Source: Candidatus Micrarchaeota archaeon | Lineage (GTDB): Archaea > B1Sed10-29 > WALL01 > WAMD01 | NCBI GenBank assembly: GCA_964652335.1 | Contig: CAZZDL010000015.1 | Coordinates: 1 to 19,033, forward strand | Length of the DNA: 19,033 nucleotides | Direction of reading: 5' to 3' | Shown here: positions 1,707 through 14,261 of the stretch, piece by piece | How positions within the stretch are numbered: the stretch's first letter is position 1 | Layout: each line of letters opens with the position of its first letter | Translations under genes and position numbers: made by a program | The notes under the pieces: generated by a model | What the model was told of the DNA's origin: nothing | What the model saw: the letters and a program-made list of their open reading frames with translations, nothing else | Databases searched by the model: none

Positions 1707-2204
1707 ATGAGATTCAACTTGACATTTGCCGTATTTTCATTTCTGATGTATCTAGCCCTGACTGCTGGGAGAGGCAGCATTGTCCTCTGGAGTCCGATAG
1801 AGATTGGGGTAGGAATTGTTATTGCTATTCTAATCGGCCTGATCTCTAGCTCGCTTCCTAGGCATCCCAGCATGAAGGCCTTGAACCCAATAAGGTGGTT
1901 AAAGTTTGGTGTTTACCTTATCTTGTTTTTCATTCAGATGGCAAAAAGCAATATTGACGTTGCAATCAGAGTCATAACAGGTCATGTGAATCCAGGCATA
2001 GTGAAAGTTCCCTCAAAACAAAAGACACAAACAGGTTTAGTGCTTTTAGCTAACTCAATAACACTGACACCTGGGACTCTTACAATAGATACAGACAAGG
2101 ATTACAATCTTTACATTCATTGGATAGACGTTAAGAAGAAGCATCCAGATGTGGAAGACGTGGCAGATGGTTTACCAAAATTAGTGAGGTGGATAATGGA
2201 ATGA
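1707..2204 (+). CDS. mbhA: Mbh hydrogenase subunit A (MrpE/MnhE-like)
   Basis: SNIDVA, NPGIV, LANSITLTPGTLTID and LYIHWID motifs; first gene of the operon. Confidence 0.92.
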   Translation: MRFNLTFAVFSFLMYLALTAGRGSIVLWSPIEIGVGIVIAILIGLISSSLPRHPSMKALNPIRWLKFGVYLILFFIQMAKSNIDVAIRVITGHVNPGIVKVPSKQKTQTGLVLLANSITLTPGTLTIDTDKDYNLYIHWIDVKKKHPDVEDVADGLPKLVRWIME

Positions 2205-2452
2205 TGGACATATTCTTGCTCACAGGGATTGCTTTGGTAAGCATAGGGATATTTCCACTTATTAGACTAGTGCTTGGACCAACTATTCCAGATAGAGTTG
2301 TTGCCTTTGATACATTGAATACCCTGGTTGTGGCATCACTAGTTTCATTTGGTTTAGCTTTTAAGACAGCAACATACATAGATGTGGCAATAGTTTATGC
2401 TATACTGTCATTCGTGGCTACGATATACATTGCCAGGTATCTGGAGGGCTAA
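2201..2452 (+). CDS. mbhB: Mbh subunit B (MrpF/MnhF-like)
   Basis: RLVLGPTIPDRVVAFD...YIDVAIVYAILSF motif; ATGA overlap with the mbhA stop at 2201-2204. Confidence 0.92.
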   Translation: MMDIFLLTGIALVSIGIFPLIRLVLGPTIPDRVVAFDTLNTLVVASLVSFGLAFKTATYIDVAIVYAILSFVATIYIARYLEG

Positions 2453-2455
2453 AAA

Positions 2456-2791
2456 ATGATGGAAATAGTTTATGCGTTCATTGGCATAGGACTCTTGTTT
2501 AATCTGCTTGGTTCTCTAGGATTATTAAGGTTCCCAGATGTATACACAAGGTTACACGCAGAGACAAAATGTACAACCTTTGGTTCAATATTCATAATTC
2601 TAGCAGTCATTGCATATGCATTTCTAAATAAGAGCGTAGGGGTGGAGGTAATAGCTATACATTCTGTTTTGGCGTTAATAGCTTTATTAGTGACTAATCC
2701 AACTGGTGCTCATGCAGTGGCAAGAGCTGCGTACAAATCAGGAGTAAAACCAATTGCTGTTGTGGATGATTACAAGAGGGTGAGAGAATGA
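2456..2791 (+). CDS. mbhC: Mbh subunit C (MrpG/MnhG-like)
   Basis: GLLRFPDVYTRLHA.TK.TT.G and TNPTGAHAVARAA motifs. Confidence 0.93.
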   Translation: MMEIVYAFIGIGLLFNLLGSLGLLRFPDVYTRLHAETKCTTFGSIFIILAVIAYAFLNKSVGVEVIAIHSVLALIALLVTNPTGAHAVARAAYKSGVKPIAVVDDYKRVRE

Positions 2792-3024
2792 TCGTGCATG
2801 TTGCTGTTTTGTCAATGATCGTTATCACAGCCATCTTGGCAGTTGAACTGAAGGATTTAATGTCTGCAGTTATATCTCTAGGAGTTATGAGTCTAATGCT
2901 TTCTCTTGAATTCTATCTCCTTCATGCCCCTGACGTTGCGATAGCAGAGGCAGGAGTTGGGGCAGCGCTTACTACAGCTATCTATGTATTGGCTGTTAGG
3001 AAGACCAGGAGGGTTTCAAAATGA
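2788..3024 (+). CDS. mbhD: Mbh subunit D (DUF4040, MrpA/B-related)
   Basis: APDVAIAEAGVGA motif; operon position. Confidence 0.9.
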   Translation: MIVHVAVLSMIVITAILAVELKDLMSAVISLGVMSLMLSLEFYLLHAPDVAIAEAGVGAALTTAIYVLAVRKTRRVSK

Positions 3025-3278
3025 GATGGGAATTGATTGGTCTAATTGTTGTTATTTCGTTCATGCTAATGGCTATTGATTACCTACATCCATTTGGTGC
3101 GCCCATTAATGCAGAAATGGATGATTATTTTATAGCCAACGCCCAGCTGGAATCCGCAGCTAATAATGTTGTTACTTCAATTGTCTTTGACTACAGAGGG
3201 ATAGACACTTTGGGAGAAGCCACAGTGTTGTTTACTGCTGTAACTGGTGTTTACTTGCTTTTGGGGGTGACCAGATGA
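3021..3278 (+). CDS. mbhE: Mbh subunit E
   Basis: NVVTSIVFDYRGIDTLGEATVLFTA motif. Confidence 0.92.
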   Translation: MRWELIGLIVVISFMLMAIDYLHPFGAPINAEMDDYFIANAQLESAANNVVTSIVFDYRGIDTLGEATVLFTAVTGVYLLLGVTR

Positions 3279-3724
3279 AGAGCAAAATAGTGCAGACAGT
3301 GGCGAACATAGTAATTCCATTCATCGTTGTATTTGGTGTATACCTAGTTATACATGGGCATCTGACACCAGGGGGAGGGTTCCAAGGAGGAGCTGTTATC
3401 GCATCTGGATTTGCATTGCTTTTGATTTCATTTGGGATTCCAGCAACTAAAAGAAAGCTGGTTGAAACCAAGCTTAGTGCGTTGGAAGCGTTTGGATTAA
3501 TACTGTTCATCACATTTGCATTTTTAGGTCTGGGCAATAGTTTCTTTTACAATTTCTTAGCAAATTCCGGTCTGATATTTGGCGATCCTGTCCCTCATGG
3601 GATAAATTTAGGAAACCTGAACACGGCCGGAACACTTCCATTAATGAGCATTGCAGTTGGTTTGGAAGTTCTAGCTGGTTTGAGTATTATACTATTGGTC
3701 TTTTCAAGGGGTGAGAGAGAGTGA
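3275..3724 (+). CDS. mbhF: Mbh subunit F (MrpB/MnhB-like)
   Basis: HGHLTPGGGFQGG motif. Confidence 0.93.
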   Translation: MKSKIVQTVANIVIPFIVVFGVYLVIHGHLTPGGGFQGGAVIASGFALLLISFGIPATKRKLVETKLSALEAFGLILFITFAFLGLGNSFFYNFLANSGLIFGDPVPHGINLGNLNTAGTLPLMSIAVGLEVLAGLSIILLVFSRGERE

Positions 3725-4056
3725 ACTTTGTTTACCTTTCAATTGTAGTTCTAATTGCACTCGGTTTATATGCAGTCTTGACAAAAAAGAATTTGATAAA
3801 GATAGTGATAGGTATTAGCATAATAGAATCTGCTGTTAATCTTTTCTTAGTTGTCCTTGGATATGTGGAGGGTGGAGTTGCGCCCATTTATACGTTGGCT
3901 CCAAGCGAAAAGATGGTTCTTCCAACACCACAGGCATTGACTCTTACCAGCATTGTTATAGGTGTTGCAGTCACTGCATTGATGCTAGCTCTAGCTGTTA
4001 ATTACTTTAACAAATACGGGAGCTTAGACGTTAGAAGTAGGAGGTTGATGAAATGA
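3721..4056 (+). CDS. mbhG: Mbh subunit G (MrpC/MnhC-like)
   Basis: KKNLIKIVIG and PQALTLTSIVIG motifs; GTG start overlapping the mbhF stop. Confidence 0.93.
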   Translation: MNFVYLSIVVLIALGLYAVLTKKNLIKIVIGISIIESAVNLFLVVLGYVEGGVAPIYTLAPSEKMVLPTPQALTLTSIVIGVAVTALMLALAVNYFNKYGSLDVRSRRLMK

Positions 4057-5612
4057 TGTTCCCCCATACTTCAGTACTGATAATTGCTATTCCCTTGCTG
4101 ACGGCTTTCATTACTCCGGTTGTTGGAAAGGTAATTAGGCCATTAAGAAATGTCATAATATTCTTGTCTCTTCTGTTAACATTTGGCTTGGTCATATCAC
4201 TGGCCTGGGACGTATACTCTTTTGGGCATGTGGTCTATACATTTGGAGCGGAGAATCCTGGGATAACTCTACCATCAGGATACTCTCTTCCAATTAGAGT
4301 TATATTCAATATAGATGGAATGAGTGTGTTCATGGCTCTTATGATTGCAATAGTATCGCTTGTAGCTTTCGTATACAGCATTGATTTTTTGAAAAAAGAG
4401 AGACAAGATAAGATGGACAAATATTATACATTACTACTCCTGATGTGTGTTGGCATGTATGGCATGGTATTTACTGGCGATTTATTTAATCTATTTGTAT
4501 TTTTTGAAATCTTATCAATAGCTTCTTCTGCCTTGGTTGCATTTAGAACTAGTGGAGAGGCGTCTGAAGCAGGATTTAAGTATATAGTCATCAGCAGCAT
4601 CGCAGCCTTGTTTATCTTGTTTGCTATTGGGATATTCTATAGTCAGTACAATGCTTTGAATATTGCAGCGATAGCGGCTAACTTGAATTTTGGCGTACTT
4701 GATAAACTAGCTCTTTCTTTGTTGCTAGTTGGTCTGGCAATGAAAGCTGGAACAATACCTATGCACATGTGGGTTCCAGATGCGTATGGCGAATCGCCAG
4801 CTCCAATTACTCTTATGCTATTGATAGCTACGCAGGCAAGTTTGTATGCATTGTTTAGGATTTCCTTTTCTCTTTTTGGACTCCACGCAAACTTAGCATT
4901 ACTTGGCTGGATATTGATTATCTTTGGGTTGTTGTCAATGTTTGTGGGAGTCACTCTCGCTATTCCACAGAAGGACATAAAGAGATTGATGGCTTACCAC
5001 TCTATATCGCAAACAGGTTATATGCTTCTAGGAGTGGGTGTAGGTTTGGCAGTTCTCAATGACCCGACAGCTTTTAGCAATTATGGATTCAAGGCAATGG
5101 AGGGTGGAATATTTCATATGATAAATTATATTTTATACAAAGGACTTCTCTTCCTAACGGCTGGGGCTATATTTTACAGGCTAAAAACTAAAAACCTTGA
5201 TGAGATGGGAGGACTTGCTCATAGGATGCCATTCACTACGTTGTTTTTCATAATAGGTGCATTGGCAATAGCAGGAATACCACCATTCAATGGATTTGCA
5301 TCTAAGCTGTTGATATATGAAAGTGTTTATGCATTTAATCCATTTCTTTCAGTTATTGCGATGTTGGTCTCTGTCTTGACTCTAGCAAGCTTTGTTAAGG
5401 TTTTCCAGAGTGCATTTATGGGTCCAGACATAAATAAATCTGTTAAAGAGGTTCCAATCTGGATGTTAGTAGGTATGGGTATACTTACTCTGTTGATAGT
5501 CCTGTTTAGCCTGTTCCCTGGACTGGTGGTTGATACTATAATCAAACCAGCAGTTATTGCATTGGCAGAAAGGCAAGCATATATCTCAGCAGTTTTGGGA
5601 GGGGTGTTGTAA
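4053..5612 (+). CDS. mbhH: Mbh subunit H (MrpD/antiporter-like proton-pumping subunit)
   Basis: TGDLFNLFVFFEI, KAG.IPMH.W.PDAY, DIKRLMAYHSISQ.GY and GIPPFNGFASK motifs. Confidence 0.94.
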   Translation: MMFPHTSVLIIAIPLLTAFITPVVGKVIRPLRNVIIFLSLLLTFGLVISLAWDVYSFGHVVYTFGAENPGITLPSGYSLPIRVIFNIDGMSVFMALMIAIVSLVAFVYSIDFLKKERQDKMDKYYTLLLLMCVGMYGMVFTGDLFNLFVFFEILSIASSALVAFRTSGEASEAGFKYIVISSIAALFILFAIGIFYSQYNALNIAAIAANLNFGVLDKLALSLLLVGLAMKAGTIPMHMWVPDAYGESPAPITLMLLIATQASLYALFRISFSLFGLHANLALLGWILIIFGLLSMFVGVTLAIPQKDIKRLMAYHSISQTGYMLLGVGVGLAVLNDPTAFSNYGFKAMEGGIFHMINYILYKGLLFLTAGAIFYRLKTKNLDEMGGLAHRMPFTTLFFIIGALAIAGIPPFNGFASKLLIYESVYAFNPFLSVIAMLVSVLTLASFVKVFQSAFMGPDINKSVKEVPIWMLVGMGILTLLIVLFSLFPGLVVDTIIKPAVIALAERQAYISAVLGGVL

Positions 5613-5945
5613 ATGGTCTTTGGCATAGAAACAGGAGTGGGCACATGGAACGCAATTATCTTCGCAGTAGCGTTTTTCATAGTTTCAATTGTTGTTTACA
5701 TTCTATCTAGATTATTGTTCTCAGGCGCCCATAAGGAAGGGGAGCAGGCAAAGCCATTCCTTTCGGGTAACGAGGAAGTTACCAAACAGCATGTGGCGGC
5801 GTCAAATCTGTACTGGGGCTTCACCAGAGCATTGAAATCATATTACGATGTAGTCATCCCAGCTCATACAGGAATAATAAACGATTACATTGGTTGGTTT
5901 GTGATAGTCCTCGCGATCGTACTAATATTAGTAGAGGTGTTTTGA
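5613..5945 (+). CDS. mbhI: Mbh subunit I (membrane anchor)
   Basis: KPFLSGNE, NLYWGF and HTGIINDYIGW motifs; position between mbhH and mbhJ. Confidence 0.85.
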   Translation: MVFGIETGVGTWNAIIFAVAFFIVSIVVYILSRLLFSGAHKEGEQAKPFLSGNEEVTKQHVAASNLYWGFTRALKSYYDVVIPAHTGIINDYIGWFVIVLAIVLILVEVF

Positions 5946-6364
5946 TGGTACCCGTAGCGTTTAAGAAATCATTGTGGGTATTTCACGTTAATACGGGAGG
6001 ATGTAATGGGTGTGATATAGAGATACTAGCAGCTCTTACTCCAAGGTATGATGTAGAACGATTTGGTATAAAACTGGTTGGTTCCCCTAGACATGCAGAT
6101 GTTCTGCTAGTTACTGGCCCAGTAACTAGAAAGATGAAGGATAAATTGAAGAGGATATATGAACAAGTTCCTGACCCCAAGGTTGTTATTGTGGTTGGAA
6201 ATTGTGGAGCTACTGGTGGAGTATTCCATGAGTCCTACAATATTGTTGGTCCTATTGATGAAATAATCCCTGTGGATGTTTATGTTCCAGGATGTCCACC
6301 TAGACCAGAGGCCATAATTCAAGGTGTAATCAAGGCATGGGAGAAATTGGAGGGTTCTAAATGA
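5945..6364 (+). CDS. mbhJ: Mbh [NiFe]-hydrogenase small subunit (NuoB-like, 4Fe-4S)
   Basis: GCNGCDIE, SPRHAD, GNC and VPGCPPRPE motifs; TGATG coupling gives an ATG start at 5945 rather than 5894. Confidence 0.94.
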   Translation: MVPVAFKKSLWVFHVNTGGCNGCDIEILAALTPRYDVERFGIKLVGSPRHADVLLVTGPVTRKMKDKLKRIYEQVPDPKVVIVVGNCGATGGVFHESYNIVGPIDEIIPVDVYVPGCPPRPEAIIQGVIKAWEKLEGSK

Positions 6365-6855
6365 TAAATGAAATAGTAAAATTCCTTGATAAGGAAGGGT
6401 TTGAGTATGGAATTAAGAAGAGGCCATCCGGAAAAAAGAAGAGGGAACATACTCAGATATGGGTAAACCTAGACAGAAGTAAGTTGAAGGATTTTGTCAA
6501 GTCTTTGTTTAAGTTTGGCTTCCCTCATTTGTCAGTTATCTCTGGTGCAGATAGGGGAGATCATGTGGAGCTAATCTATCATTTTGCATTAAACTATGAT
6601 AAGAAATTTGGAGAGATAGTTTTGAACGTTAGGGTTTCATTACCTAAGGCCGACCTGGAGATAGATTCTATTACAGACGTTATTCCAGGATCCATTGTCA
6701 CAGAAAGGGAGAAGATGGAGTTTCTTGGTGTTAAATTCAAGGGAATAACTGACGAAAGTCATGCTTTCTTAGTTGGTGAAGAGAAGCCGTGGATAAAGGA
6801 TGATGAGAGGACAAAGAAATTAGTTAGAGACACGTATAAGGAGGGGAAGAAATGA
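6361..6855 (+). CDS. mbhK: Mbh subunit K (NuoC-like)
   Basis: HLSVISGAD..ELIYHF and SITDVIPG...ERE..E.LGV.F.G motifs. Confidence 0.9.
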   Translation: MINEIVKFLDKEGFEYGIKKRPSGKKKREHTQIWVNLDRSKLKDFVKSLFKFGFPHLSVISGADRGDHVELIYHFALNYDKKFGEIVLNVRVSLPKADLEIDSITDVIPGSIVTEREKMEFLGVKFKGITDESHAFLVGEEKPWIKDDERTKKLVRDTYKEGKK

Positions 6856-8054
6856 AAAAGACAGTTAGCGTTCCTATTGGCCCTGTGCATCCAGCCTTGA
6901 AGGAGCCAATAAGGGCTAATTTGGAGCTGGATGGGGAGAGAGTTGTATCTGCCAGCGTTGAAGTTGGTTATGTTCACAGAGGTATTGAGTGGATTGGTTT
7001 GAGAAGGAATCCTATACAAAGCATATACATCGCTGAAAGGGTTTGTGGCATCTGTTCTATTAGTCACCCGTTTGCGTATACACAGGCGATAGAGGAGGCT
7101 GGAGACATTGAAGTGCCAGAAAGGGCAGACTACATAAGAACAATTATTGCAGAGTTGGAAAGGATTCATTCCCATGCCCTTTGGGCTGGAGTCGCGGCTC
7201 ATGAGATCGGCTTTGACACACTTATGCATTACACATGGAAAGTTAGAGAGAAGGTATTGGATGTCCTAGAGTATCTTACAGGTAATAGGGTAAACTATGC
7301 AATGTTCCAAATTGGCGGAGTTAGAAGAGACATAACAAAGGAGCAGTATCCCAAGATAATTGAAGCTGTTGAATACTACAGAGGCCTGCTATCCAAGATT
7401 TCAGATTTATTCCTAAATGATGTCACCATTAGGAAGAGAACCAGAAACATTGGAGTTCTTTCAAAGCAGAAGGCTCTTGAACTTTGTGCAGTTGGACCGA
7501 CAGCTAGAGCCTCTGGCGTGAAGAAAGACATACGATATTCTTACGCGTATGGAGCTTATGGAGATATTGGGATTGAACCAGTGATCCCAGACGATCCAGT
7601 TGGTGATGTTTACGATAGAATCCTTGTTAGAGTATTGGAGATAGGGCAGTCCTGTGACATAATTGAACATTGCCTAGATGCTATGCCATCTGGAGAGATA
7701 ATTGCAGAGCCTAATGTGAGCAAGCTCTTGTTTAGTCTGAGAGCAATAAATGGAGAGGGCTTTGGGAAGCATGAGGCGCCAAGAGGAGAGGTTGTCCATT
7801 ATATAAGATTTGAAGGTAAGGAAAGCCCAACCGCTTGGAAGATAAGAGCACCGACTTACAATAATATTCAGACATGGCCGGAGATGCTAATGGATGAAGA
7901 ACTGGCAGACGTTCCGATTATATTAGCATCCATAGATCCGTGTATAAGTTGTACAGACAGAATAACTGTAAAAAGAGGGAGCAATGTGGAGGAACTTACT
8001 TCAGATTACTTGCATAAACTAAGCGTTGAGAAAACAAGGAGGTTGAAGGCATGA
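6852..8054 (+). CDS. mbhL: Mbh [NiFe]-hydrogenase large (catalytic) subunit, group 4
   Basis: L1 motif ERVCGICSISH and L2 motif DPCISCTDR retain all four Ni-binding Cys; 30-aa C-terminal extension after the Arg. Confidence 0.96.
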   Translation: MKKTVSVPIGPVHPALKEPIRANLELDGERVVSASVEVGYVHRGIEWIGLRRNPIQSIYIAERVCGICSISHPFAYTQAIEEAGDIEVPERADYIRTIIAELERIHSHALWAGVAAHEIGFDTLMHYTWKVREKVLDVLEYLTGNRVNYAMFQIGGVRRDITKEQYPKIIEAVEYYRGLLSKISDLFLNDVTIRKRTRNIGVLSKQKALELCAVGPTARASGVKKDIRYSYAYGAYGDIGIEPVIPDDPVGDVYDRILVRVLEIGQSCDIIEHCLDAMPSGEIIAEPNVSKLLFSLRAINGEGFGKHEAPRGEVVHYIRFEGKESPTAWKIRAPTYNNIQTWPEMLMDEELADVPIILASIDPCISCTDRITVKRGSNVEELTSDYLHKLSVEKTRRLKA

Positions 8055-8989
8055 TTAATGTAATTGGGGCCTTTTTGATAATCGTGCTTGGAATCTTTAT
8101 TGGATTGCTTTACAAAGGAATAGACAGAAGATTAGCCGCTAGGCTTCAGGCTAGAATAGGTCCCCCAATTATTCAGCCTTTCTATGACATTAGAAAGTTA
8201 ATGATGAAGGAAACCGTTAAACCTGAGAACGCAGTTAGTTGGATGTATGAGCTGGCCCCGGTTCTGTCATTGGCGGCGTCTTTACTGATTTTGCTTTACA
8301 TTCCATTTCCAGGCATTGGTTCAGTTTTAGGGAGTAGTGGAGACTTGATAGTTGTGTTGTATCTTCTCATGCTTCCAAGTCTGTTTATGGTCTTTGGTGG
8401 GTTTGCCTCTGGAAATCCATATGCAGCAGTAGGAGCTCAAAGGGAAATGGTAATGATGATGAGTTATGAGCTACCGCTTGCCACGGTGGCCATTGCAATT
8501 GCATGGAAGATTGGGAGCTTTATCCTGCCCAATATCGTTTCAGCTCCTGTTTGGTTGGTAGTTGGCCCGCTGGGAATAGTTGGATTCTTGCTTTTGTTGT
8601 TCGTTATCTTGTCAGTTGTTCCCGCTGAGCTGTCCAAGATTCCGTTTGATGCACCTGAGGCCGAAACAGAGATAGCTGGAGGATTGCTTGTGGACTATTC
8701 TGGTAGGAATTTAGCATTGTTCTATCTGAGTGATGCAGTTAAGAGCTTTGCAATTTCTGCATTAGTAGTCGTATTATTTTTCCCATTTGACCTTGGGCTA
8801 ACTGGTATTGCTTCTCTAATCTGGTTCTTGCTAAAGGTTTTAATTGTCATGGTGATTTCCATAACGTTTGTCAGGGTTCTTGCAGCTAGATTGCAGATAG
8901 ATAATGTTGCGAGGTACTACTGGAAGACGCTAAGCGTGATAGCAATCCTAGGTTTGGTATTGATTATGTTGGATGGGGTGATTGCCTGA
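8051..8989 (+). CDS. mbhM: Mbh subunit M (NuoH/HycD-like membrane subunit)
   Basis: RLQARIGPP..QPFYD..KL and PFDAPEAETEIAGG...YSG motifs. Confidence 0.94.
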   Translation: MINVIGAFLIIVLGIFIGLLYKGIDRRLAARLQARIGPPIIQPFYDIRKLMMKETVKPENAVSWMYELAPVLSLAASLLILLYIPFPGIGSVLGSSGDLIVVLYLLMLPSLFMVFGGFASGNPYAAVGAQREMVMMMSYELPLATVAIAIAWKIGSFILPNIVSAPVWLVVGPLGIVGFLLLLFVILSVVPAELSKIPFDAPEAETEIAGGLLVDYSGRNLALFYLSDAVKSFAISALVVVLFFPFDLGLTGIASLIWFLLKVLIVMVISITFVRVLAARLQIDNVARYYWKTLSVIAILGLVLIMLDGVIA

Positions 8990-9378
8990 TGATTTCTGCA
9001 TTTTTTGAACTAGTCAAACAGTTGATAGAAGGACCTGCTACAAATCCATTTCCAGCCAAGTTCGCCCCTAGTTCTGTCAAGAAATTCTTGGAAAAGGGAA
9101 AAATCAATCCACCAGTTCCCGTTCCTCCAAAGTTTAGAGGGAAACTTGAGTATAACAGGGACACATGTGTAGGGTGTGGTTTGTGCGCCAAAGTATGTCC
9201 GGCAAATGCAATAGAGATGGTAGGCGAGCCACCAAACAGGAAGATAAGAGTATTCATATCAAGATGTACCTTTTGCTCTCAATGTGTAGATATATGCCCA
9301 ACTAAATCACTTAGCATGAGTGGAGAATTCCTATTGGCAGATACAGACAAGAATTCAAAGAATCTCATAGTTGACTGA
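8989..9378 (+). CDS. mbhN: Mbh subunit N (2x[4Fe-4S] ferredoxin-like, NuoI-like)
   Basis: CVGCGLCAKVCP and CTFCSQCVDICP motifs. Confidence 0.94.
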   Translation: MISAFFELVKQLIEGPATNPFPAKFAPSSVKKFLEKGKINPPVPVPPKFRGKLEYNRDTCVGCGLCAKVCPANAIEMVGEPPNRKIRVFISRCTFCSQCVDICPTKSLSMSGEFLLADTDKNSKNLIVD

Positions 9379-9787
9379 TCTCATTCAGCTTGTCGCTTTT
9401 TAGTATTTCCATTAGCCTTTCCACTGCCATCTTTACCTCTGGAGACATTTCTGAGAATTCAATCTTTTTTGGTTGTATCCCTATGAGTATGCATCTTTTA
9501 AAATTCTCCATTAGCATTGACAATGGCATTGAGTGAGTGGTTATTGTATAATTTGCGATCTTTTCCTTTGGGATAATTCTAACCTCCCCAGGTTCTAGTC
9601 CCATGTCCGCCGAGTCAACTATTACTACCAAATCTGGATTCATTTTTTTGATTTTTCCAATAAAGTTCTCTGGTGCTGTCCCTCCATCTATACTAACCCA
9701 GCCGTCGGCTTTAAACCACCTAGCTAGTAAAGATCCACAGCCTTCATCTGCCCTGAGCTCATTTCCTACTCCGAGTAAAACCTTCAT
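9365..9787 (-). CDS. hycI: Hydrogenase maturation endopeptidase (HycI-type)
   Basis: LGVGNELRADEG.G, DGGTAPEN, IVDSAD, TTHSMPL and IGIQP motifs. Confidence 0.92.
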   Translation of the reverse strand: MKVLLGVGNELRADEGCGSLLARWFKADGWVSIDGGTAPENFIGKIKKMNPDLVVIVDSADMGLEPGEVRIIPKEKIANYTITTHSMPLSMLMENFKRCILIGIQPKKIEFSEMSPEVKMAVERLMEILKSDKLNEISQL

Positions 9788-9808
9788 GAAGTAGTTTTGA
9801 GCATTTGA

Positions 9809-9818
9809 TTTTTATATG
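9809..9818. promoter_or_regulatory. Putative shared TATA element of divergent hycI/hypB
   Basis: TTTTTATATG in the 53-bp gap between ATG 9787 (-) and ATG 9841 (+). Confidence 0.45.
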
Positions 9819-9840
9819 GGTTTTTGACCAAAAGATAAAC

Positions 9841-10488
9841 ATGTTCTTCCATGTGATATCTGTTGGTAAGGATATACTAGCTGTTAACAGAGAGCTTGCT
9901 GAAAAGAATAGACGGTTATTTGAAAAGTATGGAGTTAGGGCATTTGATTTTATGGGCTCGATAGGTTCTGGTAAAACTAGTCTTATTGAAGAGATGATCA
10001 AACGGTTAAGGGAAAAGGGAGTTAGAGTGGCAGCTATAACAGGAGATGTATCTGGAGACGATGATGCCAAACGGCTAGCGTCTTTGGGAATAAATGTTGA
10101 AAATTTGAACACTGGAAAGGAGTGCCACCTAGATGCTCATCTTATTGAGCATGCAATAGAGAAACTAAACTTAGATAGCATTGATGTTCTTTTCATAGAG
10201 AATGTTGGGAATCTTGTGTGTCCAGCAGATTTTCCGCTTGGAACAGAGAAGAGGCTTGTTGTCATTTCTGTCACAGAAGGAGATGACATGGTTAGAAAGC
10301 ATCCAGTGATATTCGGAACAAGTGACATTGCAGTTTTGAACAAAGTAGATCTGGCAGAAGTAATGGGCGTTGATATCGCTAGAATTGAAGAGGACTACAA
10401 AAGGATAAACCCAAATGGAGTGTTTATTAAAACTTCAGCTAAAACAGGAGAAGGCATTGATGAGTTGATTAGAGCATTAGGACTGTGA
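9841..10488 (+). CDS. hypB: Hydrogenase nickel incorporation GTPase HypB
   Basis: P-loop GSIGSGKT, ECHLDA, IENVGNLVCPADFPLG, SVTEGDD and NKVD motifs; ATG at 9841 preferred over the upstream TTG. Confidence 0.95.
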   Translation: MFFHVISVGKDILAVNRELAEKNRRLFEKYGVRAFDFMGSIGSGKTSLIEEMIKRLREKGVRVAAITGDVSGDDDAKRLASLGINVENLNTGKECHLDAHLIEHAIEKLNLDSIDVLFIENVGNLVCPADFPLGTEKRLVVISVTEGDDMVRKHPVIFGTSDIAVLNKVDLAEVMGVDIARIEEDYKRINPNGVFIKTSAKTGEGIDELIRALGL

Positions 10489-10494
10489 GTAGCT

Positions 10495-10863
10495 ATGCAT
10501 GAGTTTTCTACAATGCAGGGTGTTGTAGGAGTTATTATGGAATTCGCTGAAAAGAATAATGCAAAGAAGGTTTTGAGAGTTTATTTGGATGTGGGGGAGC
10601 TGACGTTTCTGAATCATGAGCAGTTGAAATTTTCATACCAAATTCTGTCAGAGGGAACGATCCTTGAAGGTAGTGAGCTTGTGATAAGTCCGATTAAAGC
10701 TAAATATGTATGCAAGCATTGTGGGTCTTCTGGAGACCTGCCAAGGGTTGAGGAGGGAGATCATTTTTCTGTTCCAGTCTTTTATTGCCCAGAATGTGGA
10801 AAGGAAATTGAGATCACTTCAGGAAGGGAATGCAGAGTCAGAGAAATAGAAATAGAGACTTAG
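10495..10863 (+). CDS. hypA: Hydrogenase maturation nickel chaperone HypA
   Basis: N-terminal MHE, VGELT, two CxxC (CKHC, CPEC) and GRE motifs. Confidence 0.95.
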   Translation: MHEFSTMQGVVGVIMEFAEKNNAKKVLRVYLDVGELTFLNHEQLKFSYQILSEGTILEGSELVISPIKAKYVCKHCGSSGDLPRVEEGDHFSVPVFYCPECGKEIEITSGRECRVREIEIET

Positions 10864-11531
10864 AACGGCCTTCTCTTTTTTGGTCTTCCCAGCTTTTTGT
10901 GGTGTTCAAATGCTTTCTTCCAAATGCTTTCTGGAACTCTTTCACATGCATATCCGTAATGTACACTTATTTTATCTCCCACCTTTGCATCTGGCAGGAG
11001 ATCTAGCTTGACTTCCATCTCACCAATAGGAGTTTCCACCTTGGCTATCTTGTCCTTAACTTCTTTTACAACAGCTGGCCACGCTATATCATTAATCAAA
11101 TCTTCCTCTGTCTTATGAACAGGATTCTCTTCAACGATTCCCCTGTGGTATATCAAAAAATATTCTCTTATCTTTTTGTCTGTAACCGGTTTTCCCATAG
11201 CCAATGCTCTTAGAGTATTCACTGCAAATGGAAATAATTTCTCTATTGGTTTCTCCAGTGGTTCCCCTTTAGTCACATGTTTAATTGCGTTTTCTAGGTC
11301 TTCTTTAGATCTTTTTTCTCCTCTAATATTTGCAGCCATACTGCAGGCATAGCTTTCAAATGATGGAATTGCATATTTCAGGAAAACCCAAGTGTTCATA
11401 TTGTGCCTTTCCAGTTCTTTATCAAAAAATTTCTCCGCGTCTTCAGGACCAAGCTCCCTAATCTTTTTTTCTATTATTTCCTCTGGAACTAGCCCCTTAA
11501 ACTTCTTCTTCAGCTTATTCAAGCTTGACAT
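10860..11531 (-). CDS. Uncharacterised protein with C-terminal HypC-like OB-fold domain (possibly DUF6390-related)
   Basis: C-terminal WPAVVKEV...AKVETPIGEMEVKLDLLPDAKVGDKISVHYGYACE resembles HypC; overlaps the hypC 3' end. Confidence 0.65.
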   Translation of the reverse strand: MSSLNKLKKKFKGLVPEEIIEKKIRELGPEDAEKFFDKELERHNMNTWVFLKYAIPSFESYACSMAANIRGEKRSKEDLENAIKHVTKGEPLEKPIEKLFPFAVNTLRALAMGKPVTDKKIREYFLIYHRGIVEENPVHKTEEDLINDIAWPAVVKEVKDKIAKVETPIGEMEVKLDLLPDAKVGDKISVHYGYACERVPESIWKKAFEHHKKLGRPKKRRPF

Positions 11532-11785: not shown

Positions 11786-13102
11786 TTAGTCAATCTGTCT
11801 CAGACTTGCTTCCAGCTCTTTGAGTAGCTCTTCCCTAAACAGCGGCCTTTTCTCTCCTTCTTTAATCAGCTTCTTGTAAGTCTCAGGATTGTAGGCAAGT
11901 TTGAGATCTATGCCTAACTCTTTGCATGCCAACTCTAGGGCTTTCAAACTCTCTGACTCTAGCCTGAAGTAAGCTAGAAAGTGTTTGTAATGCTTTCTAT
12001 GAGTGTCCAAGAATTTCTTTATCCTTTCCTTGTTTATACGTATGTATGCCTCCTTTATCTCAGGCGTTTCTTTCCTTTCATCCCATTCATACGCATTAAA
12101 TGGGTATCTGTCATTGAACTCAAATGGTATCACGCCTGGGGAGGATATCACTATCTTATGGACTCTACTAGCCTTTCCACTTGCCTTTACTGATTTGTCT
12201 ATTAGCTTGTGAGTCTTTGATCTTGAATATGGCTTTGTGTATGAACACGGCACGAACAGGGCAATGTCTTTTCCTTTAGGTGGTTCGTAAAACCTCTGAA
12301 ACCAGTCTTGCCAGATTCTATACCAAGGATGGTCAATGTATTCTACCCCAACCCCTTCTATAAAGACCTTTTTCTCGTTTGGTATGTTCGGGACAAACTT
12401 GAAGGTTTCAAATTCTATCTCTATCTTCGGGTCATTTTTGTACCTCTCAGTGATCCTCTCAAATTCGTCTTTGCCCAACGGTTTCCATCTACCATCCGCC
12501 CACATCTCTAGCATTGGTGTTTTTCCATGGGGAAGCAGATTCATTATGACTATGTAATCAGCTGTCTCTCTTGCTAGCTCCACAGTCTTGTGAAATAGCT
12601 CTTCCCAGTTTGGGATTGGTAAATTGGCCAGGACATATGCCTTCACCTTGAACCCGTGGGAATGTATTTTTTCCACAGCCTTGAGATAGTCTTCCACAGT
12701 GAACCCTTTTGCTATCAGCTTCAGTGCATTGTTATCTGCCACCTCTAGCCCTATGCCAATGACTAGGTCTAGCCCCTTGAATTCCTCTAGTTTTTTGTCT
12801 GTTATGAATTCTGGCCTTGATTCAATTTGCAGATGCTTTATCCCCTTTTCTTTACATTTTTTCACCAAATACTCTCTGAACTCTTTTGGGAACTGCCTGT
12901 CATCCAGGAATGAGCCAGAGCAATAGATCTTTAGAGTATCACCATGGAAGTCTAGTAGCTGTCTGTCCAGCCAAGCTTTGAGGACTTGAACATTCACAGG
13001 ATACTCTTCTTTCCCATATCCACAGAATATACATTTTCCCCAGGCACATTTCCCTGATTTTGGAACTAGAACTTTTGTCTTTTCCTCTTTTTCATTACTC
13101 AT
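11786..13102 (-). CDS. Fusion of RaSEA-like archaeal radical SAM domain and ArcS/DUF5591-like archaeosine synthase domain
   Basis: N-terminal CAWGKCIFCGY, KIYCSGSFLD, ESRPEFI and IGIGLE (RaSEA-like); C-terminal PCSYTKPYSRSKTH matches the ArcS motif PCx3KPYx2Sx2H; GAGGTG SD upstream of the ATG. Confidence 0.8.
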   Translation of the reverse strand: MSNEKEEKTKVLVPKSGKCAWGKCIFCGYGKEEYPVNVQVLKAWLDRQLLDFHGDTLKIYCSGSFLDDRQFPKEFREYLVKKCKEKGIKHLQIESRPEFITDKKLEEFKGLDLVIGIGLEVADNNALKLIAKGFTVEDYLKAVEKIHSHGFKVKAYVLANLPIPNWEELFHKTVELARETADYIVIMNLLPHGKTPMLEMWADGRWKPLGKDEFERITERYKNDPKIEIEFETFKFVPNIPNEKKVFIEGVGVEYIDHPWYRIWQDWFQRFYEPPKGKDIALFVPCSYTKPYSRSKTHKLIDKSVKASGKASRVHKIVISSPGVIPFEFNDRYPFNAYEWDERKETPEIKEAYIRINKERIKKFLDTHRKHYKHFLAYFRLESESLKALELACKELGIDLKLAYNPETYKKLIKEGEKRPLFREELLKELEASLRQID

Positions 13103-13162
13103 CTCGGCACCTCGTTATGTTTGCGTTGTTTGTAACTTGTGGTAGATATGATTTGCTCAACT

Positions 13163-13193: not shown

Positions 13194-14261
13194 ATGCCAA
13201 AAAGAGTTGATCCGAAGAAAAAAGGAATCATATTGATATTTCCAACAGAAGCAGTATATGGTGGTAAAAAAGGAGATAAGAAAGAACTTGCCAATATTGT
13301 GAACAGAATAATCTCCCGTTCAAAGTCAGAGAGAGAGCATCAGATTACTGAAGAAGAACATGATGCCATTGCACTAAACCGGTTTTACGACCCCAAATCA
13401 ATTTCTGGTGAGAGGATATCTCTTATAAAAACGTTATTGAAGGAAGGGTATGATGTTAGGGTTATTAGGCCACCTACGTTTCCGGGAATGAGTTATCATG
13501 ACTTCTTAGAGGAAGTCAAGAACATTAAGGGATTAGGATTTGTAGACGTAAATGGGATCCCAGCGGTCGAATGGCTGAGGAATGTATTTACTCATGCAAA
13601 ACCTGATTTGATAATAGAGCATCTTGACAGGGCGACGGAGAGTTTAGGGCTGGATGACGTCATACAGAAGGAACTAAGGGACAAGGTAAAACACATTAGC
13701 ATAGAATCCGTGGACGGTGGTAGCTTAATTCCTGGCAAAGATTTCATTTTAGTATCCAACAACATATCAAAAGAGGATGAGGAAAAACTAAAACATCACT
13801 TTAAGGAGGTAATAAAGCTGCCATTCGGCAAGCGGGAAATCTTACCAGAATACGAATTGAGTAAATCAGTAGCGCCGGACAGGAGGTTCCTTGTAAAGAC
13901 GGATCAGATAGACTTGTTCGTAGGAGTCATCCCAGATAAGAAGTTATTAGTGGTTGACCCAGATTATTATAAAGAGCATAAAGAATTACTTGAGGATGTG
14001 GCTAAGAAGATAAAACATGAAATAGTCGTTGTCCCAGAGGAAGAAAAAAGACTCTACCCAGCCAACTTCCTATTACTTCCTGATGGCAAAGTTTTGCTGA
14101 ATGGTACTAAAAAGTTAGCTGAGAAGCTAAAGAAAAAGGGAGTTAAGGTTATAACATTAGATAAGCCGTTACATCATCATATTAGATTAGGTGGAGGAGT
14201 TAGATGCGTGACTAATATATTGAGAGGTGGTAAAGGTGCCAGGAAAACTTCCAAGAGATAA
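13194..14261 (+). CDS. Pentein (amidinotransferase/arginine deiminase/agmatine deiminase) superfamily protein, divergent active site
   Basis: C-terminal LGGGVRCVT with the catalytic Cys; VDGG, xIDLFV and PANFL motifs; WLRN where WxRD is usual. Confidence 0.7.
   Translation: MPKRVDPKKKGIILIFPTEAVYGGKKGDKKELANIVNRIISRSKSEREHQITEEEHDAIALNRFYDPKSISGERISLIKTLLKEGYDVRVIRPPTFPGMSYHDFLEEVKNIKGLGFVDVNGIPAVEWLRNVFTHAKPDLIIEHLDRATESLGLDDVIQKELRDKVKHISIESVDGGSLIPGKDFILVSNNISKEDEEKLKHHFKEVIKLPFGKREILPEYELSKSVAPDRRFLVKTDQIDLFVGVIPDKKLLVVDPDYYKEHKELLEDVAKKIKHEIVVVPEEEKRLYPANFLLLPDGKVLLNGTKKLAEKLKKKGVKVITLDKPLHHHIRLGGGVRCVTNILRGGKGARKTSKR

Follow-up and report, generated by a model that had tools for sequence, protein, structure and literature searches.

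The gene at positions 11786–13102 (minus strand) of a 19,033-nucleotide stretch of DNA from Candidatus Micrarchaeota archaeon (contig CAZZDL010000015.1; the whole stretch, at its full length, is called the window) encodes a protein of 438 amino acids, in which a RaSEA-like radical S-adenosylmethionine (SAM) domain is followed by the C1 core of ArcS. In the ArcS–RaSEA complex of Thermococcus kodakarensis the alpha component is the lysine transferase and the beta component the radical SAM lyase (PMC11298593; what is taken from this paper, and below from PMC10516641, PMC5485725 and PMC8204110, refers to the available parts of their texts). The similarity of domains and motifs suggests that the protein is probably a one-chain archaeosine synthase (lysine transferase/radical lyase), which would make archaeosine (G+) at position 15 of tRNA.

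Two enzyme domains in one chain

The open reading frame, read from an ATG at 13102 down to 11786, has no internal stop codon and holds two Pfam families above their cut-offs, Radical_SAM at residues 17–169 (E 2e-15) and DUF5591 (PF17884) at residues 264–404 (E 1e-17, 64.7 bits against a gathering score of 26). The first-pass annotation, made from the letters alone, had proposed just such a fusion within 438 amino acids, lacking any recognisable PUA or TGT-like domain; both parts of the proposal were borne out, no PUA or TGT family being found in the protein by Pfam at E≤0.1. The N-terminal radical SAM domain comprises residues 1–238 approximately (12389–13102) and is assigned by its best NCBIfam match (TIGR01210), a structure match and a tree. 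The C-terminal C1 (DUF5591) domain, approximately residues 245–438 (11789–12370), is assigned by Pfam, by the ArcS models and by a structure match.

All of the motifs quoted in the annotation were located, each on the minus strand. The cysteine triad C19-x4-C24-x2-C27 (13022–13048) would bind the [4Fe-4S] cluster and SAM, as in the radical SAM family. SGSFLD (residues 62–67; 12902–12919) is common to RaSEA, its SGS occurring also in QueL; ESRPE (residues 94–98; 12809–12823) is of RaSEA type, QueL having E-x-H at this place; and IGLE was read in the sequence at residues 117–120 (12743–12754). The ArcS signature PCx3KPYx2Sx2H, as defined in PMC10516641, is represented by PCSYTKPYSRSKTH at residues 285–298 (12209–12250). 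A Shine-Dalgarno-like GAGGTG (13108–13113), read 5 nucleotides ahead of the ATG and of putative function, supports the chosen start codon.

In an alignment of 119 sequences each cysteine of the triad is kept in at least 90%, and the spacing Cx4Cx2C in 117. Residues S62, G63, S64, D67, E94, G118, L119 and E120 are invariant, as are C286, K290, P291, Y292 and S295, among which C286 is the presumed catalytic cysteine of the C1 domain. The form E[ST]RPE is present in 97 of the sequences, the ESRPE columns being seen by hhalign as well; Cx3KPYx2S occurs in all 119 and the full ArcS signature in 109. The near-invariant triad, together with the motifs of the SAM region, therefore argues for real radical chemistry. 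The AlphaFold2 model obtained with the same alignment has a pLDDT of 96.6 and a pTM of 0.90. Its residues 6–235 have their best structural match in the queuine lyase QueL (6P78; Z 19.5, root-mean-square deviation 2.9, 209 aligned) and residues 262–438 in AF0587 (2Q07; Z 14.6, deviation 2.6, 138 aligned), while Foldseek placed viperin and Elp3 at the top for the model.

The protein belongs to a large conserved family and is not a one-off. With a threshold of E≤0.001 a protein search returned 190 homologues, of which the best 120 are all 396–467 amino acids long with DUF5591; 114 of these 120 carry the Radical_SAM label. The closest full-length matches among those listed, at 72–79% identity, are titled Nanobdellati, 'archaeon' or Micrarchaeota. 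In a scan of GTDB contigs at least 508 relatives were confirmed out of at least 593 pattern matches. Chance or misassembly is ruled out by this number of homologues with the same build and by the confirmed GTDB matches. Most of the 80 loci kept from the scan for study bear the titles Altiarchaeota, Aenigmatarchaeota, Iainarchaeum, Micrarchaeota, Nanoarchaeota, Nanohaloarchaea or unclassified archaea; a few are Thermoproteota and one is an Asgard record. The fusion thus occurs widely in DPANN and sporadically in Thermoproteota and Asgard archaea. A fusion-type match is present in 20 of 24 genomes of the organism's own phylum and in 13 of 14 of the phylum of G054, home of the Altiarchaeota-titled loci. 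A sample of 151 Thermoproteota genomes contained it in G045, on which the sample was centred, G159 and G197, and canonical RaSEA over the cut-off in none of the 151. Canonical RaSEA was found in 43 of 81 Asgard genomes; G046 has the fusion and no canonical RaSEA. In the five Asgard RaSEA loci checked an arcS-like gene lies directly upstream, three of these genes scoring over the ArcS cut-off. A search for longer fused forms (for example a triple fusion with arcTGT) gave one match in 7841 candidates, a 953-amino-acid radical SAM/ABC-ATPase protein, and counts as weak evidence. Shorter forms of the N-domain were represented by one match of 69, a fragment of 114 amino acids, the split forms described below having come from the genome search.

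The first-pass annotation had equated the radical SAM domain with RaSEA. This held in so far as the domain falls in the RaSEA/QueL group and is nearer to RaSEA by profile; it did not hold as regards membership in the family proper. The match to TIGR01210 reaches 108 bits against a cut-off of 212 and covers model positions 12–178 of 313, the last 80 or so positions of the canonical model being absent; relatives score 75–146 bits. The Elp3 and MnmL models gave 39 of 350 and 59 of 180 bits for the 438-amino-acid protein, in both cases below the cut-off, and the GNAT domain of Elp3 is absent. With profiles built in the analysis the query scored 136 bits for RaSEA and 31 for QueL, whose profile is shallow, and hhalign of the N-domain gave E 4e-53 for RaSEA against 3e-17 for QueL. 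The QueL-like set derives from a motif scan of metagenomes, one member having been checked against 6P78 (E 1e-82).

Two trees were computed, a careful one of 39 rows and a quick one of 102 rows from which row L307 was left out, both being subsampled (26 fusion-group rows, 36 RaSEA and 10/13 non-redundant QueL-like). In the 39-row tree the fusion clade (100/99) and the RaSEA clade (98/97) are separate, so that the N-domain is not nested in RaSEA. QueL forms a clade with four short Thermoproteota radical SAM proteins (99/98), the query lies outside the QueL clade (100/100), and the fusion, RaSEA and QueL clades all stand apart from Elp3/MnmL (100/98). The quick tree agrees. The annotation had named clustering with non-RaSEA radical SAM families as an outcome contrary to its proposal; the N-domain stays inside the RaSEA/QueL group, in which a grouping with QueL is not rejected. 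The spacing Cx4Cx2C is that of queuine lyase and Elp3 in PDB alignments and is no RaSEA hallmark: among 36 RaSEA proteins over the cut-off it occurs in 8, 27 having 7–9 residues and one having 12. Because of the score and the clade of its own, the domain is called RaSEA-like rather than RaSEA. It is a separate subfamily in the RaSEA/queuine-lyase group and no member of TIGR01210, and from its sequence most likely works like RaSEA.

Two bacterial plasmids carry radical SAM genes similar to RaSEA (L306:4821-5972 and L307:4836-5951; 30–35% identity to an Asgard RaSEA). The Clostridium gene nests in the RaSEA clade and the Streptomyces gene is located in what looks like a biosynthetic cluster; lyases of the RaSEA-like kind seem to have found uses other than tRNA modification.

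The C-terminal domain aligns with C1 of five Asgard ArcS proteins. The ArcS models NF040592 and NF053620 match over C1 only (56 bits against 440 for NF040592), and the four-domain build of ArcS, consisting of a TGT-like N-terminal domain, C1, C2 and PUA, is not that of the 438-amino-acid protein. Nor is the build that of ArcS2, a stand-alone gene found with DpdA and acting on DNA: here C1 is fused, and the sole PF01702 match of the genome is arcTGT.

Co-occurrence with arcTGT and the supply of preQ0

In the organism's own genome (0.82 Mb, 96.8% complete) the gene is the sole match to TIGR01210 and to DUF5591. Besides this gene the family profile of the C-half found nothing, and that of the N-half only Elp3 and one weak radical SAM match. 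The single TGT is arcTGT (515 bits against a cut-off of 350). Since separate Elp3 and TYW1 genes are present, the radical SAM domain is no stand-in for them. The first-pass annotation had regarded a genome lacking arcTGT, or one with separate canonical arcS and raSEA, as contrary to its proposal; arcTGT is present, and no stand-alone arcS or raSEA was found. The presumed substrate nucleotide G15 occurs in 40 of 41 predicted tRNA genes; the second copy of tRNA-Asn(gtt) is the only one with A15.

Co-occurrence was studied in 23 genomes of the same phylum and the genomes of 50 of the 80 loci; removal of 11 duplicates left 62, of which 58 carry the fusion, 59 carriers being reached with the own genome. 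It was found that 56 of the 59 have arcTGT over the cut-off. Full-length canonical ArcS is present in none of the 59 carriers, further DUF5591 matches lying inside arcTGT or in frames of 118–262 amino acids, and canonical RaSEA over the cut-off is present in one (G055). The fusion replaces the canonical ArcS and RaSEA genes in carrier genomes. The four non-carriers include three genomes of genus g9 that also lack arcTGT. In the phylum of G060, evenly sampled with 201 genomes centred on that carrier, DUF5591 occurs in three genomes and arcTGT over the cut-off in two, both among these three; 32 further genomes have a TGT below the cut-off, probably of bacterial type, and all are without DUF5591.

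The arcTGT gene lies divergently upstream of the fusion gene, head-to-head and in one orientation throughout, in 18 of the 80 loci, of which only 54 have an upstream flank of at least 3 kb; in 6 the distance is less than 500 bp. In the window the fusion gene does not adjoin arcTGT. A predicted complex of the fusion with its own arcTGT scored 0.00 in two runs without controls, which weighs neither way.

As to preQ0 (7-cyano-7-deazaguanine), which serves as precursor, the check for arcTGT together with queCDE proposed in the annotation had a divided outcome: arcTGT is there, and queC, queD and folE are missing, leaving the pathway incomplete upstream. QueD, YhhQ, FolE and FolE2 were not found in the own genome. 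A QueC-like match was rejected as AsnB-like, scoring as asparagine synthase, and QueE-like matches as NrdG-type activases. Over the 62 genomes QueC is present in 15, of which 13 exceed the cut-off, and YhhQ in 6; no genome has both, and every genome with either is a carrier. The same fusion protein is retained where a carrier has a full queC/D/E cluster.

Proposed reaction and alternative explanations

In the proposed reaction arcTGT, whose gene is present in the genome and whose chemistry is established elsewhere, would swap G15 for preQ0, which in this organism would come from outside. The C1 domain would then attack the nitrile of preQ0 through Cys286, presumably forming a thioimide, which lysine would displace to give preQ0-Lys15, as the conserved motif suggests; the thioimide at C286 is inferred by analogy with QueF-like (PMC5485725). 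Judging from the kinship with RaSEA and QueL, the [4Fe-4S]/SAM domain would generate a 5'-deoxyadenosyl radical and the C–N bond of the lysine would be cleaved, leaving the formamidine of G+. The fusion would fix in one chain the association of ArcS with RaSEA, an obligatory one in Thermococcus: the ArcS of T. kodakarensis must be bound to RaSEA in order to transfer lysine to preQ0-15, RaSEA then forms G+, and this ArcS does not co-purify with arcTGT (PMC11298593). The loss of the PUA, C2 and TGT-like domains would be tolerable because ArcS, which accepts preQ0 nucleoside and nucleotide (PMC11298593), needs little beyond the preQ0 nucleotide.

A number of observations weigh against this assignment. 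The N-domain scores below the RaSEA cut-off, and its grouping with viral relatives and RaSEA has a support of 73/59, the QueL alternative being unrejected (approximately unbiased test, p 0.25). The C-terminal cysteine tail HNCxxC, found in 20 of 36 RaSEA proteins, occurs in 0 of 120 fusions, and the top solved-structure match of the N-domain is QueL; no solved RaSEA turned up in the PDB searches. Three of the 59 carriers (G057, G066 and G067) gave no detectable arcTGT, G003 (81% complete) lacks the fusion although it has arcTGT, and in the genome of G492, which carries a split pair, no arcTGT or DpdA was found. The co-occurrence counts, such as 56 of 59, are descriptive, being taken over related genomes that are not independent, and 39 of the 62 genomes had been picked for carrying the fusion. 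Neither QueC nor YhhQ was found in 38 of the 59 carriers, the own genome included, and in 9 of the 11 carriers that are at least 90% complete. Incomplete assemblies account for some of these cases, probably not for all, and carriers lacking both genes would depend on an outside source of preQ0, reached through an unrecognised transporter or by contact with a host. M. jannaschii ArcS was reported to use NH4+, Gln or Asn (PMC11298593), and the C1-only ArcS2 of phage nt-1, in E. coli without co-expressed RaSEA, gave 4–7 residues of 2'-deoxyarchaeosine (dG+) per 10^6 nucleotides (PMC10516641). In view of these donors and traces of dG+ the lysine route is therefore not the sole possible one.

The last two reports favour an explanation in which G+ is formed on tRNA from another nitrogen donor, NH4+ or a non-lysine amine, and the adduct cleaved by the radical SAM domain is another one, or this domain is chiefly a structural activator; the position of the N-domain as a separate subfamily without the RaSEA tail is also consistent with this. 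Such a route is nevertheless improbable, since a radical lyase is needed only upon an alkylamine adduct, the cysteine triad and SAM-region motifs are near-invariant, and three euryarchaeal ArcS enzymes made no use of NH4+, Gln or Asn (PMC11298593). It might also be supposed that the protein acts, additionally or mainly, in salvage, by a QueL-like processing of a 7-deazaguanine base, nucleoside or nucleotide scavenged from the host, for example from degraded G+-tRNA, to preQ0 for arcTGT. The many carriers without QueC and YhhQ, the structural match to QueL, the acceptance of preQ0 nucleoside and nucleotide by ArcS, the lack of an RNA-binding domain by Pfam and the inability of canonical arcTGT to use the G+ base (PMC5485725) would all fit. 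This role is very unlikely, however, as carriers with a complete queC/D/E cluster have the same protein, T. kodakarensis ArcS, which has a Km of 433 uM for the nucleotide, does not catalyse the reverse reaction (PMC11298593), and the fusion does not track TGTs other than arcTGT. Moreover, no other G+-forming enzyme was seen among the DUF5591 and RaSEA matches, QueF-like and GAT-QueC not having been searched across carriers.

An unrelated RNA-modifying function of the Elp3 or MnmL kind, or a non-functional remnant, is suggested by the best PDB sequence matches, which are to Elp3 (E 3e-10), and by the Cx4Cx2C spacing common to Elp3. It is the least credible of the alternatives and very hard to reconcile with the tree, which splits the N-domain from Elp3/MnmL (100/98), with the separate Elp3 of the own genome, and with the strong conservation and tight linkage to arcTGT.

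Related arrangements, neighbouring genes and known systems

The 151 Thermoproteota genomes contain nine frames of about 200–350 amino acids with DUF5591 alone, eight of which were inspected (G101 was left out; there is no result for G160). In G086 (L326:1378-2792), G149 (L333:1168-2594) and G108 (L360:767-2178) a C1-only ArcS gene is directly followed by a radical SAM gene of about 240–250 amino acids, and the radical SAM genes of these split pairs are sister to bacterial QueL (99/98). The short radical SAM gene of G173 lies elsewhere in the genome, apart from the C1 gene; in G189, in G109 and around the second C1 gene of G197, no such gene was seen in the flanking 1.5 kb. A YhhQ/Vut_1 gene is located directly upstream of the pair in G108 and about 2.5 kb off in G149. 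These two-gene units are candidate operons for preQ0 salvage and G+ formation and a possible origin of QueL. In G109 the C1-only gene lies directly downstream of a DpdA/TGT-like gene of 289 amino acids (L317:1378-2827; phrog_887, E 3e-42), possibly a DNA-modification pair in Thermoproteota.

In two of four viral loci (L310:4656-6323 and L312:4554-6366) a short RaSEA-like gene comes directly after a C1 gene, with replication genes around the pair; in L310 QueD and FolE2 lie within 5 kb of it. PF01702 detected no TGT in any of the four viral records, and NF041059 no DpdA in L310 and L312, although fragmentary records or too great a divergence of the enzyme may account for this. An annotated phage collection gave no match to the viral radical SAM gene. 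The pair may be a possible radical-SAM route to dG+ in viral DNA. Other arrangements were found in G372, in which a break at profile position 202, within the last part of the radical SAM domain, divides the fusion into two genes 420 kb apart (L357:1417-2106 and L345:1357-2091), and in G492 (L346:1378-3253), in which the C1 gene is followed by a 421-amino-acid protein whose fusion-type radical SAM domain is preceded by an N-terminal part with a Cys-rich motif. G372 also has a short arcTGT frame, of 417 amino acids.

From the fused and unfused arrangements it follows that the C1 core and a short radical SAM lyase travel together. It is tempting to speculate that C1 plus a radical SAM lyase of about 230 amino acids is the minimal archaeosine synthase, fused in DPANN, encoded by neighbouring genes in some Thermoproteota (in one case immediately after yhhQ) and in viruses, into whose DNA it may introduce dG+; that QueL, to which the Thermoproteota lyases are sister, is derived from an archaeosine enzyme; and that most DPANN carriers draw preQ0 from the host, possibly with the help of the enzyme. 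Taken as a whole this picture is tentative and rather doubtful.

As to the neighbouring genes, a long operon resembling membrane-bound hydrogenases and antiporters, recognised by eye from the translations, occupies 1707–10863 (plus strand) of the window and includes protease-, HypB- and HypA-like maturation genes, in a DPANN genome of 0.82 Mb. The following gene, 10860–11531 (minus strand), encodes 223 amino acids, in which a long N-terminal part precedes a HypC domain at the C-terminus (Pfam E 7e-10); HypC usually occurs on its own as a small protein. Divergent from the fusion gene, at 13194–14261 (plus strand), is a 355-amino-acid orphan with a weak match to dimethylargininase, which is amidinotransferase-like (E 0.01). 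Its candidature as an amidine-related partner was rejected, no homologue occurring in any fetched locus and the closest relatives having other genes. The slot between the fusion and the gene resembling phosphoenolpyruvate synthase holds different orphans in the relatives L038 and L039 and none in L037.

No description of a radical SAM–C1 fusion was found in the literature, a provisional result, as key primary papers on ArcS and RaSEA and their supplements might mention it. The word 'archaeosine' is absent from PMC7337903; PMC3655853 includes a split arcTGT in its table of split genes but not this family, and PMC8204110, as far as its text is available, treats only queuosine genes of DPANN. Relatives among the matches listed are named 'DUF5591', 'radical SAM', 'hypothetical' or 'archaeosine synthase', the last in some JGI entries. 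The structure of the ArcS–RaSEA–tRNA complex and the RaSEA reaction are named as open problems in PMC11298593. A single chain of 438 amino acids that can be modelled with confidence is far simpler to use in the study of structure and mechanism, and provides a direct test of whether ArcS can do without its PUA, C2 and TGT-like domains. The fusion is the likely G+ enzyme of several DPANN phyla and offers a partner for C1-only ArcS genes. Tiny genomes with arcTGT and the fusion and no known source of preQ0 point to the transfer of a tRNA-base precursor from host to symbiont.

The comparison with the euryarchaeal ArcS–RaSEA pair showed the same two catalytic modules, the ArcS signature, SGSFLD, ESRPE and IGLE, and the dependence on arcTGT. 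The fusion protein differs in being one chain of about 430 amino acids, whereas the Asgard pair has about 650 and 360, in the absence of TGT-like, C2 and PUA domains, in a radical SAM part that forms its own clade without the C-terminal Cys tail, and in its occurrence mostly in DPANN. With QueL the protein shares the triad CxWGKCxFC and the SGS motif, 6P78 being the top structural match of the N-domain. QueL cleaves a C–N bond on the 7-deazaguanine side chain by a radical mechanism; unlike the fusion it is a stand-alone bacterial salvage enzyme for free queuine, with E-x-H in place of ESRPE, and is expected with a bacterial-type TGT, whereas the genome of the fusion has arcTGT only. The C1 core with PCx3KPYx2Sx2H is common to ArcS2, the C1-only ArcS of phages and some archaea (PF17884; PMC10516641). 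ArcS2 is stand-alone, the phage enzymes acting on DNA with DpdA, and the available text of that paper mentions no radical SAM partner for it, whereas the C1 described here is joined to a radical SAM domain and tied to arcTGT. GAT-QueC and QueF-like, the crenarchaeal alternatives to ArcS, are likewise compact routes to G+, GAT-QueC also being a fusion; their folds are unrelated, neither is described in the accessible part of PMC5485725 as a radical enzyme, and QueF-like uses free NH4+. The radical SAM–C1 fusion is thus a real and conserved new architecture with probably known chemistry, rather than a new kind of system.

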